NCBI GenBank assembly: GCA_900766735.1
Contig: CAAFWO010000008.1
Location: 2,022-66,021, forward strand
Length of the DNA: 64,000 bases
Origin: Clostridia bacterium
Lineage (GTDB): Bacteria > Bacillota > Clostridia > CAKSNL01 > HGM11501
Direction: 5' to 3'
The notes under the pieces were generated by a model. It saw only the letters and a program-made list of their open reading frames with translations, did no database searches and had not been told where the DNA came from. Positions within the stretch are counted from its first letter, which is position 1. Every line of letters begins with the position of its first letter. Shown piece after piece: positions 12,877-22,479 of this stretch. A program made the translations under genes and the position numbers.

Positions 12877-14043
12877 ATGAGTTTAACATCCGTTCCCTCG
12901 GGCGAGCGCGTCCACATCGGCATTTTTGGCCGCCGCAATGCCGGGAAAAGCTCACTCGTCAACCGCATCACGGGGCAGAGCGTTTCGCTCGTTTCCTCCG
13001 TTCCCGGCACGACGACGGACGCGGTCAGAAAGGCGATGGAGATCCTTCCCTTGGGCCCCGTCGTTCTTATCGACACTCCGGGGTTTGACGATTCTGGCGA
13101 CCTTGGCAAGATGCGCGTCGAAGCCACTAAAAAAGTGCTCTCGGAGTGCGACGCGGCGCTCTTGGTCATCGACCCCGAAAAAGGAGAGGGTGAGACCGAG
13201 AAGGCACTTTGTGCACTCTTTGACGAGAAAAACATTTCCTATATTAAAGTATATTCAAAGTCCGACATTAAAAAGGGCGCCGGGCTTTCGGTGTGCTCCG
13301 AAACGGGCGAAGGCATATCGAAACTGCTTGACGCGCTCTCAAATATCCTCCCCGAAAAGGAAAATCCGCGCCGTATAATAGGCGACCTTTTGTCCGAGTC
13401 CGACTGCGTTATCTTGGTCACGCCGATAGATTCTGCCGCTCCCAAGGGCAGGCTCATTTTGCCCCAGATCGAGACTCTTCGCGATATTTTGGATTCCGGC
13501 GCGATGGCGCTCGTAGTAAAAGAAACGGAATATGAAAAGGCGCTCTCAAAGCTCGCCGCCCCTCCCCGGCTTGTCGTGACGGACAGTCAGGTGTTCGGCC
13601 TTATCAATAAGTTAACGCCGCGCGATGTTCCGCTCACGAGCTTTTCGGTCTTGATGGCGCGCTACAAAGGCATTTTGCCGGCCGCGTTATCCGGCGCCGC
13701 GAAGCTTGACTCACTGTCTGACGGCGACCGCGTTTTGATCAGCGAATCGTGCACCCATAAAAAGCAGTGCGACGACATCGGCACCGTCAAGCTGCCCAAA
13801 TGGATAAGCGAATACTCGGGAAAAGACATTGTATTTGAATTTTCGTCCGGCAAAGGGTTTCCTTCCGATCTTTCGCCCTACAGCCTGATCGTTCAGTGCG
13901 GCGGATGTATGATAACCGAACGCGAAGCAAAAGAGCGCTACCGCCTCGCCGAAAGATCCGGCGTTCCGATCACGAACTACGGCACGGCGATCGCGAAAAT
14001 GAACGGCATTCTTCCGCGCATAAGCGAACTCTTTGTCGAATAA
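12877..14043 (+). CDS. hydF: [FeFe]-hydrogenase maturation GTPase HydF
   Basis: G1 motif GRRNAGKSS, plus GTTTD and DTPG. The C-terminus has CTHKKQCDDIG...VQCGGCM (CxH...HCxxC-type cluster site). The ATG at 12877 follows GGGAGG. Confidence 0.85.
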   Translation: MSLTSVPSGERVHIGIFGRRNAGKSSLVNRITGQSVSLVSSVPGTTTDAVRKAMEILPLGPVVLIDTPGFDDSGDLGKMRVEATKKVLSECDAALLVIDPEKGEGETEKALCALFDEKNISYIKVYSKSDIKKGAGLSVCSETGEGISKLLDALSNILPEKENPRRIIGDLLSESDCVILVTPIDSAAPKGRLILPQIETLRDILDSGAMALVVKETEYEKALSKLAAPPRLVVTDSQVFGLINKLTPRDVPLTSFSVLMARYKGILPAALSGAAKLDSLSDGDRVLISESCTHKKQCDDIGTVKLPKWISEYSGKDIVFEFSSGKGFPSDLSPYSLIVQCGGCMITEREAKERYRLAERSGVPITNYGTAIAKMNGILPRISELFVE

Positions 14044-14059
14044 TACCACACGCTGATAA

Positions 14060-14088
14060 GTTGACATAATCAAAAAAATGTGCTAAAA
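14060..14088 (+). promoter_or_regulatory. sigma-A promoter (TTGACA-17-TAAAAT)
   Basis: TTGACA at 14060-14065 and TAAAAT at 14083-14088, upstream of the SCP2-like gene. Confidence 0.6.
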
Positions 14089-14123
14089 TAATAGCAGAAC
14101 TCATCAGAAAGGAGCTAACGTTT

Positions 14124-14588
14124 ATGACATTTGAAGAAAGATTTTCAGAACTCAAAAAGATTATTTCCAAGAAAAGACCTAAGCTCGGTCCCGTTTTTGC
14201 AATTCAGGTCAATATGACCGACTCTGACTGTCACGGTACTTTCTATATCGCATATACAGACGGCACCTTGAGAGTTGAGCCCTATGACTACTATGACCAC
14301 ACAGCGATGATAACGGCAGACTCGAAGGTTCTGGGCGAGCTTTTGGAGGGCACGTTAACGCCCGGGAAAGCATATGAAGAGGGCAAGATCATTATCGACG
14401 GAAGCTTAGAGTCCGCAAAGGAGCTTACCAAGCTTTGCAAAAAGCCGGTCGTTAAGAAGGCCGCTCCCAAAAAGGCGGAGAAAAAGCCTGAGGTCAAGCC
14501 TGAGGTCAAGCCTGAAGTCAAGGCTGAAGTTAAACCCGAGGTCAAGACCGAGAAACTGAAAAAAGAGTGCAAAAAGAAAAGCAAATAA
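14124..14588 (+). CDS. SCP2 (sterol-carrier-like) domain protein with a Lys-rich KPEV-repeat tail
   Basis: About 110 aa with an SCP2-like pattern (FAIQVNMTD...GTFYIAY..., ADSKVLGELLEGTLTPGKAYEEGKIIIDG), followed by KKAAPKKAEKKPEVKPEVKPEVKAEVKPEVKTEKLKKECKKKSK. Confidence 0.6.
   Translation: MTFEERFSELKKIISKKRPKLGPVFAIQVNMTDSDCHGTFYIAYTDGTLRVEPYDYYDHTAMITADSKVLGELLEGTLTPGKAYEEGKIIIDGSLESAKELTKLCKKPVVKKAAPKKAEKKPEVKPEVKPEVKAEVKPEVKTEKLKKECKKKSK
14484..14552 (+). repeat. 12-nt in-frame tandem repeat (about 5.7 copies) encoding (K-P/A-E-V)n
   Basis: aagcctgaggtc aagcctgaggtc aagcctgaagtc aaggctgaagtt aaacccgaggtc aagaccgag. Confidence 0.9.
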
Positions 14589-14625
14589 CAAAAAAGCCGG
14601 CATTTGGCGGTCATTGATAAAACAG
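14586..14625. repeat. left arm of a 40-bp imperfect inverted repeat (putative attL: terminator half + element end)
   Basis: taacaaaaaagccggcatttggcggtcattgataaaacag matches the reverse complement of 20641-20680 at 34/40 positions. The first 16 nt are identical. Confidence 0.85.
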
Positions 14626-14661
14626 TAACATCAACAGACTGTCAAACGGAGTTGTCAAAAA

Positions 14662-14699
14662 ACACGCATATCACTTTTTAAGGTGGTATGCGTGTTTTT
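14662..14699. terminator. element-borne bidirectional terminator next to the left junction
   Basis: acacgcata (14662-14670) pairs with tatgcgtgt (14687-14695). An A6 run precedes it (14656-14661) and T-rich sequence follows it. Confidence 0.65.
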
Positions 14700-14876
14700 C
14701 GTGTGCTTTTATTTTTCTTAAAATGTCTACTCTGATATGTCACCATTTAGAGGTCGAAAAAGCCTTGTTTTATGCGGCTTTTAAGGGCTGAAATTGGCGA
14801 GGTAATATAATATCATTACTTTGCTCAAAAATGGGGATTTATTTTCTACAAAAATTACTTAAGTAAATGTTCATAT

Positions 14877-17800
14877 TTACACAATAGTTATTCCTAATAA
14901 TGAATTTAATTTAGAAACAACTTCTTTTTGCAGTTCAGTAAATTTTTCAAATGTATCCGCATATGTTTTTTGCATTTCAACATCGAAACACCCTGCCTTA
15001 TTAATTGGAATTTCAATGATTACATCTTTCAATATATTAACAGTCAATCTTTTGTTTTGTTCTCCATCTGCACTATGTTTTAGCACTTCTGATAGAAATG
15101 CATGCACATATGGCATATACACAGTATTCTTAAATTCTTCTTTTACACACATTGCCCCGCAATGCGTTGTCATACTGAATTTTCCATTGCGATAGAATAC
15201 TGTTCCTGCATATACTCCATCTGTTGTCCATGTAAGACACTCACAGTCAAAATCATAGGTATCAATTTGCGCTATTATTCCATCATTAGATGTTTGAGAT
15301 GAAAAAACTGGATAGATGCCCTGATGTTCGGTAAAATACTTATTGGTGTATTTTGATTTTCCCTTTACTAAATCGAACAATTCCGATATTTTAACCGCTC
15401 TCGTTCCTGTTTGTAAATCAATATTAGGTCTTGTTGACGAGATTTGTTCAACACAGCCGTTTACTTTATTCTCAAATTCTTCAAAAATAGAATATTGAGC
15501 TATAAAATTTTCTTGATACTCCAATGATATTTCTCCGCTATCAACTGATGTGGGCATGTCAATCTCTAAATCCTCGATCATTGATGGATATAGTTTTGTA
15601 AACTCATCTTTTCCTTTTTCACCTTTTCGCCCCTTTGCCATCTCTCTAAAAGTCGGTTGCAATATATGCTTAACATATTTTAATGAAATGTTTTTAGAGC
15701 GCGGTATTAATATTCCACGATCCCCATTTATTGAAAACTTACCATCTAAAATCATTATATATCCAGCAAAACCATTTGATGACCAAGAAAGACACGGTAC
15801 ATCGTAATCATAAGTATTCATATATGTTAACGGGTTGCTATTTGAAGCCGAAAAAACCGGATACTGTCCCTTGTTAGCTTCACCATATTTTTTCGTATAT
15901 TTCGAACAGCCTTTTTCAATTTTAAATAGTTCGTTCAGTTTATACTTTCTAAAAATTATTTCACCGTTTTTTTTTATATCAATTTCATTAAAAAGAGATT
16001 GATACTCAGAAATTTCATTAATTGCCTCACCTATCATATTACCAAATTCAGAGGGACTCATAGTATTTATTTTTTCAATAATTCCCAGCGATACTCTCTC
16101 TTCATATGTCCACCATTTATCTATAATCCACCCTTTTGAACAATTTTCAACAAACTTAGAAAATTCAAAAATTTTACAACGAGGGTCATTTGCTCTAAAC
16201 CTATTTTTCGAGCCTTTAAATTGATTAAACAAATCTACGGCAGTTTCTATTTGGTTCTCACCCGTATCAAATCGATAAATATCTAATGTTTCACCTATAT
16301 CACTTACCAAATAGGAAAACACAGGAGATTGTTGGACTTCATCGAAATTATCCTTTTTGGTTAATGCAATTATATAAGTCTTTTTGTTCGTAGTAAAAAA
16401 TGTGTTTAACGGCAACGAAATTAAAGCATCTATTATGCAGTTTTGGCATATAAATTTTCGTAGCTTATAGTCATTTTGTCGGTTCAGAATTCCATCTGGA
16501 ATAACAACAAATGCCTTACCATTAGGTTTAAGAGCATTAATTATCCATTCCATAAAAAGACCTTCTACACCCAATCCATTTGCTGTATAGTATTTTTCTA
16601 ATACTGAATCTTTGCGTATTTCATCTTTAAGATTACTACTTCCGCTAGTCACATATGGAGGATTAGTTAGGATGAGATCATATTCATCTTTAACAGGATC
16701 TCTTAATGTGCCAAGGATTGAGTTTGTTTTCAAGGTAAATGTTTCATTAAACAAATCCGCAAATATTTTTGTATACTTAGGATCTGGATATTCTTTTATC
16801 AAATCGGAAAAGTAAATTAACATATTTGCTTTTGCTAGAATAATTGTTTTTTGTTCTTCTCTATCAAATCCCTTGTCAAATCCATGTAATGTCACACTTG
16901 AACAAAGTTTTCCGTTCTTAATTTTATAAAAAGTTTTCAATTTTGGCAAAACAGCCTCAAGCAAAAACTTTCCCACACCGCATGCGGGGTCACAAATACT
17001 CATATTGTCATGAATATCTGCCATTTTCACCATAGGTTTAACTACTTTTAACGGTGTAAAGAATTGCCCCCAATTTTTTTTGCTAATACTTTCTTTCAAA
17101 AAGCTCTCAAAAATCTTACTTTTAAAATCATAATCTATTTTTTCTAATTTTCCATAATTATAGAACCTTTGTAGAATTTTCTTAAATACACCACTATACC
17201 CCTCAACAGCTTTATCGTCTTTGCTGACAAATATTGTTCCATTAATGATAGTAGTATTGTCTTTCGTATTTTTGGGGAAAAGTTGCTTAATTTTAGGTCT
17301 TATAGTATTTGCATAATACTCCAGCACCTCATTGTCCGTATTATCATCATACATACTAATCAGACTATAAAAATTATGCATACCCTTAAGAACTTCTAGG
17401 TCACTTAAGTATTTAAAAATAAAAATTTCTACAAAAGTATACAAACAATTTTCAGGCGTAGCACCGCTAACAGTCCATATATCTTGCCAAATTTGTTTTG
17501 CTAAGGGTGTTGGATTTTGTAATTCAGGGGCAATCAATTGAGAATTATCCTTTGATATACATGAATCAATTTTTTCAAACAATTTTACTATTTGCTGATC
17601 ATTCGGATCAAACAGATTTACCAACTGTTTGTTATTTTCATCATTAATAAAATCCCCTGTAATTCCATTAAGCCAAATAGTCTTTGTAGTATCAGTTACT
17701 ATGGCAATTTTCGCCTTTAATCCTTTAGATATTTCTAGTGCTTGTTCAATTGCCTTTTTAATTTTTGTTTTTGTATTTAATTCAGAAGGTTTTTTGTTTT

Positions 17801-18008
17801 CAATTGTACAAAAAACTTTTTTGCCTAAAACTACAATTCCATCCGGCTTTTTATTTTCTATCCCCTTATAAGTCTTTTTTGTAATAATACCTGCCTCTTT
17901 CAAGTTTTTAATTGACGTCGCTCCGATATTATAAAATGTCCATTTTCCAATTGTTTGTGGATTGTTAATTAAATCTCTTTGTAACAATTCTTCACTCACT
18001 TTTCTCAT
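14877..18008 (-). CDS. single-polypeptide restriction-modification-specificity enzyme (Type IIB/IIG-like; nuclease + N6-adenine MTase + two TRDs)
   Basis: 1043 aa. It has a PD-ExK motif (D56-X13-E70-N-K72, in KPDGIVVLGKKVFCTIENKK) and an HsdM-N-like helix region (FVEIFIFKYLSD). The SAM motif I DPACGVGKF is at aa 340-348 and motif IV NPPY at aa 449-452. Two HsdS-like TRDs follow, at about aa 683-860 and 868-1043. Confidence 0.85.
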   Translation of the reverse strand: MRKVSEELLQRDLINNPQTIGKWTFYNIGATSIKNLKEAGIITKKTYKGIENKKPDGIVVLGKKVFCTIENKKPSELNTKTKIKKAIEQALEISKGLKAKIAIVTDTTKTIWLNGITGDFINDENNKQLVNLFDPNDQQIVKLFEKIDSCISKDNSQLIAPELQNPTPLAKQIWQDIWTVSGATPENCLYTFVEIFIFKYLSDLEVLKGMHNFYSLISMYDDNTDNEVLEYYANTIRPKIKQLFPKNTKDNTTIINGTIFVSKDDKAVEGYSGVFKKILQRFYNYGKLEKIDYDFKSKIFESFLKESISKKNWGQFFTPLKVVKPMVKMADIHDNMSICDPACGVGKFLLEAVLPKLKTFYKIKNGKLCSSVTLHGFDKGFDREEQKTIILAKANMLIYFSDLIKEYPDPKYTKIFADLFNETFTLKTNSILGTLRDPVKDEYDLILTNPPYVTSGSSNLKDEIRKDSVLEKYYTANGLGVEGLFMEWIINALKPNGKAFVVIPDGILNRQNDYKLRKFICQNCIIDALISLPLNTFFTTNKKTYIIALTKKDNFDEVQQSPVFSYLVSDIGETLDIYRFDTGENQIETAVDLFNQFKGSKNRFRANDPRCKIFEFSKFVENCSKGWIIDKWWTYEERVSLGIIEKINTMSPSEFGNMIGEAINEISEYQSLFNEIDIKKNGEIIFRKYKLNELFKIEKGCSKYTKKYGEANKGQYPVFSASNSNPLTYMNTYDYDVPCLSWSSNGFAGYIMILDGKFSINGDRGILIPRSKNISLKYVKHILQPTFREMAKGRKGEKGKDEFTKLYPSMIEDLEIDMPTSVDSGEISLEYQENFIAQYSIFEEFENKVNGCVEQISSTRPNIDLQTGTRAVKISELFDLVKGKSKYTNKYFTEHQGIYPVFSSQTSNDGIIAQIDTYDFDCECLTWTTDGVYAGTVFYRNGKFSMTTHCGAMCVKEEFKNTVYMPYVHAFLSEVLKHSADGEQNKRLTVNILKDVIIEIPINKAGCFDVEMQKTYADTFEKFTELQKEVVSKLNSLLGITIV

Positions 18009-18216
18009 CTCCGTTCAGCTTATTTTGAAAATAATTATCATCCCTGTTTGATGGAATATATTCTTGTAAGTTTCTAATGCCGTTTTCAAAAATTTCTCTT
18101 TCTATTAAATACCTTACAGAATCAGTAAAATTAGTTTGCATAGATGCAAATTGCATCAATTTGTTATCATTGTCACGAAATCTAATAGAATATCTTGTTT
18201 TTTCGTTCTTCATCAT
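17992..18216 (-). CDS. small ribbon-helix-helix-like protein, putative controller of the RM gene
   Basis: ATGATG at 18211-18216 follows GAGGTG. MMKNEKTRYSIRFRDNDNKLMQFASMQTNFTDSVRYLIEREI fits a beta-strand/helix/helix (CopG/Arc-like) pattern. Its 3' end overlaps the RM start codon by 17 nt. Confidence 0.55.
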   Translation of the reverse strand: MMKNEKTRYSIRFRDNDNKLMQFASMQTNFTDSVRYLIEREIFENGIRNLQEYIPSNRDDNYFQNKLNGDEKSE

Positions 18217-18233
18217 ACACACCTCATGATAAT

Positions 18234-18282
18234 AGTATAACACAAAGAGATTTGTATGTCAATAGCATACAGATCTCTTTGT
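18234..18282 (-). promoter_or_regulatory. near-consensus promoter embedded in a 17-bp inverted repeat (putative operator)
   Basis: Minus strand: TTGACA at 18257-18262, a 17-nt spacer, and TATACT at 18234-18239. The inverted repeat acaaagagatttgtatg (18242-18258) / catacagatctctttgt (18266-18282) matches 16/17 around a 7-nt centre. The -35 box straddles the left arm and the centre, and the left arm covers the spacer. Confidence 0.65.
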
Positions 18283-18418
18283 TAAATTTTTTTAGAAAGT
18301 AAATTTTCAAACACCTTTGGCAAAAATCATTTTTTGAGTGTAGTAGTAATAGAGAGACAAGCAAAATTTTTTTTGAAAAAATTTTCACAAAAAGTTGTTT
18401 TTTCGGCATTTTATTTGT

Positions 18419-18507
18419 TACTTATATGAGGGGCAAAATAAGATAAAAAATTTTTGCTTTCAAGGTTGCCGAAACGGAATTTCCTGCACTACTTATATAG
18501 AGGGCAA
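18419..18507. repeat. direct repeat pair A (tacttatatgaggggcaa / tacttatatagagggcaa), 71 bp apart
   Basis: 18419-18436 and 18490-18507. The first 9 nt are identical and gagggcaa is shared after a 1-nt indel. Weaker similarity continues for about 25 nt downstream. Confidence 0.7.
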
Positions 18508-18580
18508 GTGAAAAATTTTCATCAAAAAGGGTTTGGGGATATCCCAAAAATCCAAAATCAAATTTGCCGTGTGTGGCTAT

Positions 18581-18669
18581 ACACGCTTTGCTTGCTATTC
18601 CGTAAGAATGGCAGGCAAAACAAAATTGATTTTTGGCGAGTGGGTACTCACTCGCTTTGCTTGCTACTC
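18581..18669. repeat. direct repeat pair B (acacgctttgcttgctattc / actcgctttgcttgctactc), 69 bp apart, each fused to a short hairpin
   Basis: 18581-18600 and 18650-18669 match 18/20. The hairpins are cgtgt-gtggctat-acacg (ending at about 18585) and gcgagtg-ggtact-cactcgc (about 18636-18655). The 3' arm of each hairpin runs into the repeat. Confidence 0.75.
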
Positions 18670-18700
18670 TCAAAACAAACGAAAACAGAGGTGCTATTTA

Positions 18701-20624
<1,924 letters not shown>

Positions 20625-20640
20625 ACCGAAATCATTATTG

Positions 20641-20680
20641 CTGTTTTATTAAGGACTGCCATTAGCCGGCTTTTTTGTTA
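20641..20680. repeat. right arm of the 40-bp imperfect inverted repeat (putative attR: element end + terminator half)
   Basis: ctgttttattaaggactgccattagccggcttttttgtta. The last 3 nt are the GH35 stop codon on the minus strand. Confidence 0.85.
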
Positions 20681-22479
20681 TTCTCCTTCCAGTATCGCGT
20701 GATCCAGCGTGCCGATCTTGGGAGTGCCTTTTCGGTTCACATCGAAGACAACGATCTCGTTTTCTTTTTCTTTTATCAGTCCGCCCGGAACATAGAGCGT
20801 GTACTGCGGCCCAATCTCCCAGAAACGGCCGATGTTAAATCCGTTAATGAGAACAAAGCCTCTTCCCCAGCCGCGCATATACAAAAACGTATCAACGCCT
20901 GCCTGTGCGTCAAAATGCCCCTTAAAAAATGCCGGGTCGTTGTCGCAAAGCTTGCCGATAGGGCCATATTTAACGTTTGACAAATCCTTCATCTGAAGAA
21001 CGCTCATTTTAAATCCGTAAAGCTTCGCGTTGTCATAGGCGATGTATTTAACGCCTTTCGGGTCGTCGTCAAGCTTTTTTCCGCCGTTCACCCGTGCGAC
21101 GGATTCGCAAAGAACCCTTATTTTCACGGTTCTGTCCGTCCCGTCGGCATAAATCGGCTCTTCTGCCCTGTCGCGGTCGATCATACCCAGATATTCGTCC
21201 CCGTCATAGACCGTGACTCTGTCCGCCACGCCCCCGACGGTGACTCTTCTCTTTCCGCACTCGCTCCATCCCTCTGCATCTGCTTCATAAAGTACGAAAC
21301 CGCCGGCTGTTTTAAGCGCCTCAAAGCTCTTAACGTTCGGAGCGGTCACAGTCTTTTCGGTGAGCGCATCAAGGTTGTCAAAAAGGCGCGCGTGCTCTGT
21401 CAGGTGAATTTCAGGCGTCTGCACCTTATAGGAAAACGGCAGATCGCGGCTTTCGTTTTTCTCCTTGCCCAAAAATTCAGAAAGCTCATCGCGGCAAAGG
21501 TAATATTTCTCGGTCGGAAGGCCGTTCTCGGTCACGAGCGCGTCCTCGTCATAGCTCGTCGTATGCGCGATATAGCGAACGGGCGTGCCCGGCCGCGGAG
21601 TGAGCGACCTGTCGACCAGTCCTCCGGAAAACGACCCGAAATTCGTGCCTCCCGAGAACATATAAAAATTCACAAAGCCCTCTTCGAGGCACTCTCGGTA
21701 GGCCTTTGCCGTCTCCTCGGGGTCGCGCTTTTTATATGGCTCTCCCCAGTAGATCGCGCGGCCTGCCCAAAGCTCGCCGACGAAAAACGGGAACTCAGGA
21801 AATGCCTTTTTTGTGTAATCCGCAAATCTCTTTGCGACACCGGGCGTTGAGCGGAAATTTGCTCCGCGCATCACCCCGTCGAGCGAGCCCATCTGAAGCG
21901 CGCCCGGCGTATTGTCCGTCGTGTAAAACGGCACGTCGACGCCCATGTCCTCCATCATTTTTTTAAGAACCGAAAGATAGTTTTTGTCATAGCCGGCTCC
22001 GCCGTACTCGTTTTCAACCGCGACCATGATGACAGGGCCGCCGTTGGTCGAAAGATAGGGCACGATTTTTTCATCAATACGGAATAATAGTTCTTAACAT
22101 GCAAAAGATAGCGCTCATCCGAGCACCTAATGTCGAGCTCTTCGAATTTCAGCCAGCCGGGAAGCCCGCCGAAATCGCACTCCGAGCAAAGAAACGGTGA
22201 CGGGCGAAGAAGCACCTTAAAGCCCATCTCGTCTGCCAGCTCTAAAAACGCGCAAAGGTCAAGATGTCCCGAAAAATCGAATTTTCCTTTCTCGGGCTCG
22301 TGCAGGTTCCAAGGCACATAGGTCTGTATCGTGTTAAGCCCGAAATCCTTCGCCAAAAGAAGGTGACGCCTCCACTCGGCCGGGTATATCCTGAAATAAT
22401 GAATGTCGCCGGACGCTAAATAATAAGGTTTTCCTGAAAGGAAAAATCCATCCTTCGTTATCGTGAGTTTTTCTTTCAT
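20678..22479 (-). pseudogene. GH35 beta-galactosidase, frameshifted in an A-run
   Basis: ORF 21955..22479 (MKEKLTITKDGFFLSGKPYYLASGDIHYFRIYPAEWRRHL...) and ORF 20678..22063 (...VPYLSTNGGPVIMVAVENEYG...) are contiguous parts of one GH35 enzyme. The switch lies at ATGAAAAAATCG (T6 at 22066-22071 on the + strand). One more A would restore ...LMKKIVPYLS. Confidence 0.8.

Follow-up and report, generated by a model that had tools for sequence, protein, structure and literature searches.

Why should a restriction-modification (RM) enzyme whose nuclease and methylase are joined in one polypeptide be preceded by a regulator gene of its own? RM controllers have been described as helix-turn-helix (HTH) proteins that delay the nuclease relative to a separate methylase (PMC12707154). 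A dedicated regulator precedes the fused enzyme in most homologues of the one considered here, though no such delay is possible in it. The question is raised by a locus in a 64-kb stretch of Clostridia bacterium DNA (64,000 nucleotides of contig CAAFWO010000008.1; the whole stretch is called the window hereafter), where a palindrome with an embedded promoter, a small open reading frame (ORF) of 74 amino acids and a single-chain restriction-modification-specificity (R-M-S) gene follow one another on the minus strand. In an initial annotation of this DNA, the small protein was taken for a ribbon-helix-helix (RHH) protein that binds the palindrome and autoregulates the operon, and translation of the RM gene was thought to depend on coupling to it. 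This interpretation as a whole is partly supported. The comparative analysis described below makes it likely that the DNA-binding domain of a partition adaptor has been re-used as an autorepressor governing the dose of the RM enzyme, in a two-gene cassette. The elements of the locus are as follows.

18242-18282, no strand assigned: 41-bp palindrome, the putative operator, with arms at 18242-18258 and 18266-18282.
18234-18262, minus strand: sigma-70-type promoter, with -35 hexamer TTGACA at 18262-18257, TG at 18242-18241 and -10 hexamer TATACT at 18239-18234.
18222-18225, minus strand: Shine-Dalgarno sequence GAGG of the small gene, 5 nt before ATG 18216 and 8 nt before ATG 18213.
17992-18216, minus strand: small gene of the putative regulator, 74 aa from ATG 18216 (73 aa from ATG 18213), with stop codon TGA at 17994-17992.
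18009-18012, minus strand: Shine-Dalgarno sequence GGAG of the RM gene, 9 nt upstream of GTG 17999 and inside the 3′ end of the small gene.
14877-17999, minus strand: single-chain R-M-S gene, 1040 aa from GTG 17999; the longest ORF has 1043 aa from ATG 18008.

Is the small ORF a gene, and does it belong to the RM gene? A word-indexed search with the window protein retrieved close relatives only, and further lineages were supplied by a genome scan, for which 10 closer sequences served as input, and by a metagenome scan. A relative 84% identical to the window protein (P0002) precedes an RM gene of 1040-1043 aa on every contig inspected, and these contigs represent conjugative-element contexts (relaxase, TrbL, TraG). 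In further RM-linked lineages, identity of the regulator goes down to 44%, with RM homologues of 65-94% identity. Altogether, the small gene lies directly before an RM homologue of 1038-1049 aa in 11 of 11 RM-linked lineages (window/L023, L001-10, L024/25, L026, L027/28, L030, L031, L032/43, L042, L044 and L045). One of them, L023, is a source-like Clostridia metagenome-assembled genome (MAG) whose regulator is 100% identical to the window protein, and the other sources are Clostridium lundense, other Clostridia MAGs and uncultured Bacilli MAGs. GAGGTG or GGAG is found at the matching place ahead of the small gene in relatives, and the ratio of nonsynonymous to synonymous substitution rates (dN/dS) of the gene is 0.01-0.38 in eight pairs. 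The ORF that had been pointed out before the RM gene is present there, it is linked to that gene in all lineages of the clade, and by these comparisons it is a real gene under purifying selection.

Where does the conserved unit begin and end? The window and the P0002 loci can be aligned from the palindrome onward and are unrelated upstream of it; among the relatives, too, the palindrome and its embedded promoter are kept as a unit amid unrelated flanking DNA. BLASTN homology with six diverged relatives extends from ~18280 to ~14871, just past the stop codon of the RM gene. The region from 18282 to ~14871 on the minus strand is thus a self-contained two-gene cassette of 3.4 kb. Because it lies in an island beside a recombinase gene here and in conjugative elements in relatives, this cassette must be transferred as a unit between mobile elements. 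Clostridium lundense DSM 17049 has two copies of it (L024 and L025) on two scaffolds. Their regulators and operators do not differ, nor do the 140-odd nt read ahead of the operator, hinting at a mobile element that has been duplicated or exists in several copies.

What kind of enzyme does the second gene encode? In Pfam, the protein matches N6_Mtase (7.5e-34), Methylase_S in two stretches and an Eco57I-type methylase; models of Type I specificity and methyltransferase proteins match as well, and the N-terminal region, which is conserved, has a PDG...ENK motif. One polypeptide thereby combines a PD...ExK nuclease region at its N-terminus with a gamma-type N6-adenine methyltransferase and two target-recognition domains, and its nearest solved relatives by sequence are HsdM proteins and RM.BsaXI. 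This domain order is that of single-chain Type IIB/IIC enzymes of the TstI, AloI and PpiI class. However, TstI has ~150 kDa per chain (594 kDa as a tetramer; PMC4027205), and the window enzyme, with 1040 aa, is shorter.

The start codon of the RM gene has turned out to be important for the question of coupling. Every RM homologue recovered has the N-terminus M-S/N-E-E-L-x-Q-R, which is shared also by plasmid genes of Rhizobium, Geobacter and Rickettsia with 34-59% identity. Because this conserved N-terminus maps to GTG 17999-17997, translation is likely to start there, and ATG 18008 is an unlikely start. The initial annotation, which placed the start at ATG 18008-18006, was right that GGAG (18012-18009) abuts this codon; its conclusion that the Shine-Dalgarno sequence is unusable came from the mis-assigned start, since the same GGAG lies 9 nt before GTG 17999. 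In relatives, the RM gene begins with ATG and has (A)GGAGG 8-10 nt upstream. Likewise, the 17-nt overlap of the two genes reported initially holds for the longest RM ORF from ATG 18008, and from the homologous start GTG 17999 it shrinks to 8 nt (GTGAGTGA). The relatives have an overlap of 4-8 nt or a gap of 4 nt; the genes overlap in all RM-linked lineages but L042, where the RM start lies just beyond the stop of the small gene. The stop codon of the small gene is provided by RM codons 2-3, and consequently unrelated upstream ORFs of other RM homologues also end with ...(N/H)E-stop. Dependence of RM translation on coupling, as proposed initially, is not supported, given the usable Shine-Dalgarno sequence and the L042 genes, which lack the overlap. 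Translational coupling to the small gene would be possible rather than demonstrably necessary.

What is the role of the palindrome? Its arms of 17 nt, complementary at 16 of 17 positions, enclose a 7-nt loop, and each arm has an outer box, AAAGAGAT, and an inner box, GTATG. Inverted repeats of like quality did not occur in any of 100 dinucleotide shuffles of the 64-kb window, and the expectation for one in the low-GC island that contains the cassette is 0.007. The promoter matches the consensus at 11 of 12 positions and has an extended -10 element in addition, making it the top-scoring promoter-like site in 14500-19000; its 17-nt spacer is occupied by the right arm of the palindrome. The sequence TTGACA-17-TATACT and the 17-bp inverted repeat (16/17) around it, both pointed out initially, are thus present where they had been placed, the latter beyond chance in shuffles. 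Alignment of 12 distinct operators gives a common plan: an outer GAGA(T) core, a variable dinucleotide, inner GTATG-N3-TTGA|CATAC and the mirror-image arm, followed after the right arm by three or four bases and then TG-n-TAnnnT. GTATG/CATAC and GAGA/TCTC are nearly invariant over the 12. In every RM-linked relative, the -35 hexamer is formed by the loop and the inner right box, with the spacer filled by the right arm. The centres of the boxes are ~10.5, 12 and 10.5 bp apart, so that the boxes would be on one face of the helix.

Alternatively, such a palindrome might work for the most part as a hairpin of the nucleic acid itself, terminating outside or antisense transcription or insulating against it, rather than as a protein operator. 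Indeed, it scores terminator-like on the plus strand, with an 18-pair stem and then TAAATTTTTT, and the variable dinucleotide changes symmetrically in both arms in some lineages (AA/TT, AT/AT, TA/TA). Symmetric changes would, however, be equally expected for an operator bound by a dimer, and they do not discriminate between the two. What does discriminate is the pattern of mismatches: those in the stem of several other lineages, such as L001, L031 and L045, are uncompensated (9-15 of 19 positions paired) while the boxes stay fixed, which fits a protein site better than a hairpin. Moreover, the hairpin is not followed by a T-run on the minus strand, no plus-strand gene ends at the palindrome, and the -35 hexamer always consists of the loop and right arm. 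A mainly hairpin role is very unlikely on this evidence, and we regard the palindrome as a putative protein operator in what follows. Two other candidate sites were rejected. A perfect third copy of the 12-nt half-site (ACAAAGAGATTT) at 17971-17982 inside the RM gene is not considered an operator because CAAAGAGAT encodes conserved Q-R-D and is present in 25 of 48 RM homologues without this regulator; a half-site-like sequence over the ribosome-binding site of the small gene (18214-18227) is at chance level.

Which protein would bind the operator? The small protein has no match in Pfam, NCBIfam, PADLOC or PDB sequence searches, and in PHROGs it gives a weak match to an unnamed family only. The initial view that it differs from the HTH/Xre-type controller (C) proteins of RM systems is thus borne out by the Pfam, NCBIfam and PADLOC searches. 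In a phmmer search of 1.84 billion representatives, 222 clusters were matched at E<=1e-3, with the best E down to 1e-19. Most of the matches are proteins of 90-250 aa aligned through the first ~65 residues. The family is one of Firmicutes, and all sources annotate its members as 'hypothetical protein'. Its core reads x-[FY]-[ST]-[IV]-[RK]-[FL]-K ... Q-x-N-F-[ST]-D-x-I-x-Y-L-I-E-K-E-I-x-E-N-G-I-R-N-L ... I-P-x-x-R. Long members of 97-300 aa have a low-complexity linker and an aromatic C-terminal tail in addition; a tail motif of IPxCY, DIExW or VxxSY type is found in nearly all members of at least 89 aa and is absent from the short forms. The RM-linked forms (65-75 aa) have neither linker nor tail, and the window protein stops 8-10 residues past the common domain. 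A singleton of 152 aa on a 694-nt ENA contig (P0004) consists of two diverged family domains in tandem; it may be a single-chain dimer of natural origin, or else two adjacent genes may have been fused.

The genomic context of the long forms provides a clue to the origin of this domain. In 13 of 13 long-form lineages with visible context, the gene is 12-61 nt downstream of an actin-like gene of ~400-450 aa (381 aa in a C. perfringens plasmid), recognized by a Pfam ALP_N match, by ParM/StbA annotation or by 34-35% identity to such a gene. Upstream of the parM genes are arrays of short repeats with ~10-bp spacing (L029 3343-3395, L011 3555-3755 and L021 3622-3662), including GTAATACTTT five times in L029, TAATACTTGGTAATA and TGCAAT/ATTGCA, which look like parC centromeres. 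The GTAT core of these repeats has a faint likeness to GTATG, the inner box of the RM operator. On the C. perfringens plasmid NZ_CP134263.1, a family member (L123 2666-3025; E 7.6e-16 with the domain profile) follows a ParM/StbA gene and has an IPSCY tail, so that genes in the ParR position on clostridial plasmids belong to the family, the studied pCW3-type ParR families apparently being outside it. ParR and Alp7R bind repeats at the promoter of their own operon, repress the operon and couple the DNA to an actin-like filament (PMC9426499; PMC8557374). The long forms, with an N-terminal DNA-binding domain, a linker and a tail, are in the same position and would be adaptors of this kind, with a tail that may bind ParM. 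As to the spread of the family, a member was found on only two C. perfringens plasmids, and the pCW3-type ParR families were not retrieved; tblastn of a plasmid collection with the window protein retrieved two Paenibacillus records and one of Thermobacillus, none of them a pLS20-type plasmid.

How are the short and long forms related? In a neighbour-joining tree of 197 domains, drawn without support values, the RM-linked and short forms make one exclusive clade of 13 tips, and for this reason the tail has probably been lost once. The N-terminal motif R-[YF]-S-[IVF]-R-[FL], in the putative DNA-reading strand, is conserved in the whole RM-linked clade along with the shared operator, and differs in ParM-linked members. 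The residues after IPxxR (D/E-x-Y-F...) are common to both.

With such relatives, the small protein might still act in DNA partition, the palindrome being a minimal centromere of a mobile element. Besides the homology to ParR-position proteins, the location of cassette relatives in conjugative elements would suit this role. However, none of the 11 RM-linked lineages has an adjoining ParM/Alp gene; the downstream partner is the RM enzyme instead. The aromatic C-terminal tail, which would contact the ATPase, is absent, the putative site is a single inverted repeat rather than an array of direct iterons, and the window cassette is in a chromosomal island beside a serine recombinase gene. A surviving role in partition is exceedingly improbable, and re-use of the domain as a repressor is the preferred reading.

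What fold can be expected for the small protein? The AlphaFold model of the monomer, built from a 53-sequence alignment, has a mean predicted local distance difference test score (pLDDT) of 74.5. Residues 1-17 are without regular structure, helices are formed by residues 18-26 and 30-45 (pLDDT 83-90), and a third helix is at 60-72. This model is consistent with an RHH protein lacking its partner chain, and RHH is a candidate fold for it. ParR proteins are typically RHH proteins (PMC9426499). The small protein also resembles RHH autorepressors such as Arc, CopG, omega, ParG and antitoxins in its size, in the palindromic operator overlapping the promoter, and in an N-terminal R-Y-S-I-R-F that alternates polar and hydrophobic residues and precedes modelled helices of ~9 and 16 residues. 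It differs from them in having a third helix and a conserved IPxxR after the core, and in having no Pfam or structural match.

How general is a regulator in this position? Of the metagenomic proteins homologous to the RM N-terminal region, the 80 best (60-74% identity) were surveyed, and 67 of them have at least 350 nt upstream. In 46 of these 67 evaluable loci, a small same-strand ORF ends at the RM start. This slot is taken by Xre-type HTH_3 proteins of 65-139 aa in 30 of the 46 cases, HTH_17 proteins in five, the ParR-like family in four, zinc-ribbon proteins in two, and other recurring ORFs in five (two of 68 aa and one of 63 aa, without a Pfam match, and two of 113 aa with a weak winged-helix match). 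A CopG-type RHH_1 protein is in the slot on one shorter contig, and three proteobacterial plasmid RM homologues have no small upstream gene. Over all metagenome loci (L042-L121), the slot has zinc ribbons, of 57-59 aa, in three cases. The four loci with the ParR-like family are the four closest RM homologues, all of which carry the operator. Thus, the small gene is kept upstream of the RM gene in the nearest clade, and outside this clade other regulators take its place. The condition for refutation set initially, lack of conservation upstream of homologous RM genes, accordingly has a split outcome. The initial annotation considered a regulator ahead of a fused R-M-S enzyme unusual, which the prevalence of upstream ORFs, mostly Xre-type, does not bear out. 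What seems unusual is the kind of regulator rather than its presence: the ParR-like domain appears, from this survey, to be a rare replacement of a C-like HTH protein.

The frequency of Xre-type proteins in the slot raises the possibility that the small protein, too, is a classical C protein, an activator of its operon when scarce and a repressor when abundant; C proteins have been described as such activator-repressors (PMC12707154). Like C.PvuII, C.BamHI and C.Esp1396I, it is encoded upstream of a nuclease-bearing gene and overlaps it on the same strand, a palindrome is situated at the promoter of its own gene, and autogenous control is to be expected of it; moreover, 30 of 67 RM homologues have an Xre-type HTH protein in the slot. 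However, the Xre ORFs in the slot score HTH_3 at 1e-11 to 1e-16, in a test where the small protein had no HTH match, and no HTH/Xre fold match was found for it. In addition, a promoter with 11 of 12 consensus positions and an extended -10 should need no activation. Instead of a distal activating site and a proximal repressing site, there is one symmetric site centred on a near-consensus -35, so that only repression would be expected here. Finally, nuclease and methylase are fused, and a delay of one relative to the other is not possible. A classical C protein is therefore an unlikely explanation. The best reading of the small protein is nonetheless an autoregulatory, C-protein-like role, because the gene is real and RM-linked, the palindrome and promoter are conserved as a unit, and the protein is not of the HTH/Xre type.

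An outline of the proposed process is as follows: the small gene would encode only the ~65-aa N-terminal DNA-binding domain of the family, the tail having been lost in one clade, and this tail-less form would have come to lead the operon of a single-chain, Type IIB-like R-M-S enzyme. The small protein would bind as dimers to the two arms of the 41-bp palindrome. Since the arms flank the -35 hexamer and fill the spacer, binding would exclude RNA polymerase and repress the small protein's own operon, of which the near-consensus promoter would need no activator. The RM gene would be co-transcribed and start 8 nt before the stop of the regulator, behind its own Shine-Dalgarno sequence. This co-transcription and juxtaposition would make RM output follow that of the regulator. 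By negative feedback, the amount of enzyme would be kept low whatever the copy number, and its overshoot after entry into a naive cell would be limited.

Why should dose be the variable worth controlling in single-chain enzymes, rather than the timing of restriction versus modification? In those of Type IIB, cleavage and methylation of unmodified sites compete in one protein, and cleavage needs a tetramer bridging two sites, for which reasons the amount of enzyme may matter. The single-chain Type IIB enzyme TstI forms a tetramer, requires two sites for cutting and cuts on both sides of a bipartite site; methylation and cleavage of unmodified sites by it proceed at similar rates (PMC4027205). 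Assembly with rising concentration has been proposed in a review as the means by which single-polypeptide RM enzymes are regulated (PMC12707154).

Alternatively, or in addition, the small protein may act on the RM protein itself, like an antitoxin or an anti-restriction partner. The tight translational juxtaposition of the two genes would fix their stoichiometry. RHH antitoxins combine operator binding with neutralization of the toxin. Regulation of RM and toxin-antitoxin systems has been compared previously (PMC3874152). However, the residues after IPxxR that could have made an RM-specific tail are shared with ParM-linked members and so belong to the common domain, and RM homologues function beside unrelated upstream proteins or none. 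An action of this kind is distinctly unlikely, and transcriptional autorepression is preferred for the small protein.

Several results weigh against autorepression by a partition-type RHH domain. Foldseek with the monomer model found no match in PDB, and a PDB profile search with the family was empty. Pfam searches across 42 family members gave no RHH match, nor did they give any HTH family. The family has no significant sequence similarity to the structurally solved pSK41 ParR: hhalign of the family profile with this protein placed strand, helix and helix in register, with a probability of 3.7%, too low to count as evidence. The AlphaFold model of the natural tandem P0004 had a predicted template modelling score (pTM) of 0.30 with the second domain mis-folded, and it was discarded. 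The assignment of the long forms as ParR/Alp7R-position adaptors is drawn from gene position and architecture. Characterized ParR proteins bind direct repeats (PMC9426499), whereas the window site is an inverted repeat, and this palindrome is the one that scores terminator-like on the plus strand. Furthermore, a strong promoter unrepressed at entry would cause a burst of potentially lethal enzyme, so that the dose argument leaves the survival of the host unexplained.

With these points in mind, how might the present arrangement have arisen? A broader scenario is a single capture of a ParR-type domain, which shed its tail and came to govern transcription of the RM gene. In this scenario, at least five unrelated DNA-binding folds (Xre HTH, HTH_17, zinc ribbon, CopG-type RHH and ParR-like) have entered the slot independently of one another, implying selection for dose control and not for the timing of restriction versus modification. 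We consider the chances of this scenario to be evenly balanced. Control of an RM system by a regulator from a partition-adaptor family would be new, and the comparative evidence for it is strong. If it is true, it gives the first functional handle on an unnamed family of >200 clusters, as ParR-type adaptors of Firmicutes actin-like partition systems, and documents clearly that a segregation protein has been taken over for the regulation of a defence gene. The need of single-chain RM enzymes for transcriptional control would also become testable with a compact 3.4-kb cassette.

The cassette is in a low-GC island at ~14600-20650, which has 28-41% G+C, compared with ~50% in the flanks. Apart from the RM cassette, the sole gene in the island is a divergent one for a large serine recombinase (18858-20606, plus strand) with Resolvase, Recombinase, Zn_ribbon_recom and DUF4368 domains. 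The island may be a minimal integrative element. One further element lies in it, outside the conserved cassette:

14658-14699, no strand assigned: G+C-rich hairpin with an A-run before it and a T-run after it.

This hairpin is between the RM gene and a convergent ORF at 14124-14588, and it is probably a bidirectional terminator that ends the RM operon. An Rfam scan of 14000-21000 gave no known RNA.

Some minor observations were made in the same region. Between the cassette and the recombinase gene, 18284-18535 has A/T-rich direct and inverted repeats, e.g., AAAAATTTTCA...TTGCCC..TATATAAGTA-like units, which are not shared with the cassette relatives and could be recombinase or promoter sites. 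Beside the island, the ORF at 14124-14588 (plus strand) encodes a lysine-rich tail with a short PEVK-type repeat (KPEVKPEVKPEVKAEVKPEVK). On the other side, two overlapping minus-strand ORFs of 461 and 174 aa (20678-22063 and 21955-22479) resemble frameshift-split halves of one gene, and this pair could be a pseudogene or an assembly error. Other near-perfect inverted repeats of at least 17 nt in the window are at ~361-400, 31973, 51885, 58026 and 60973.

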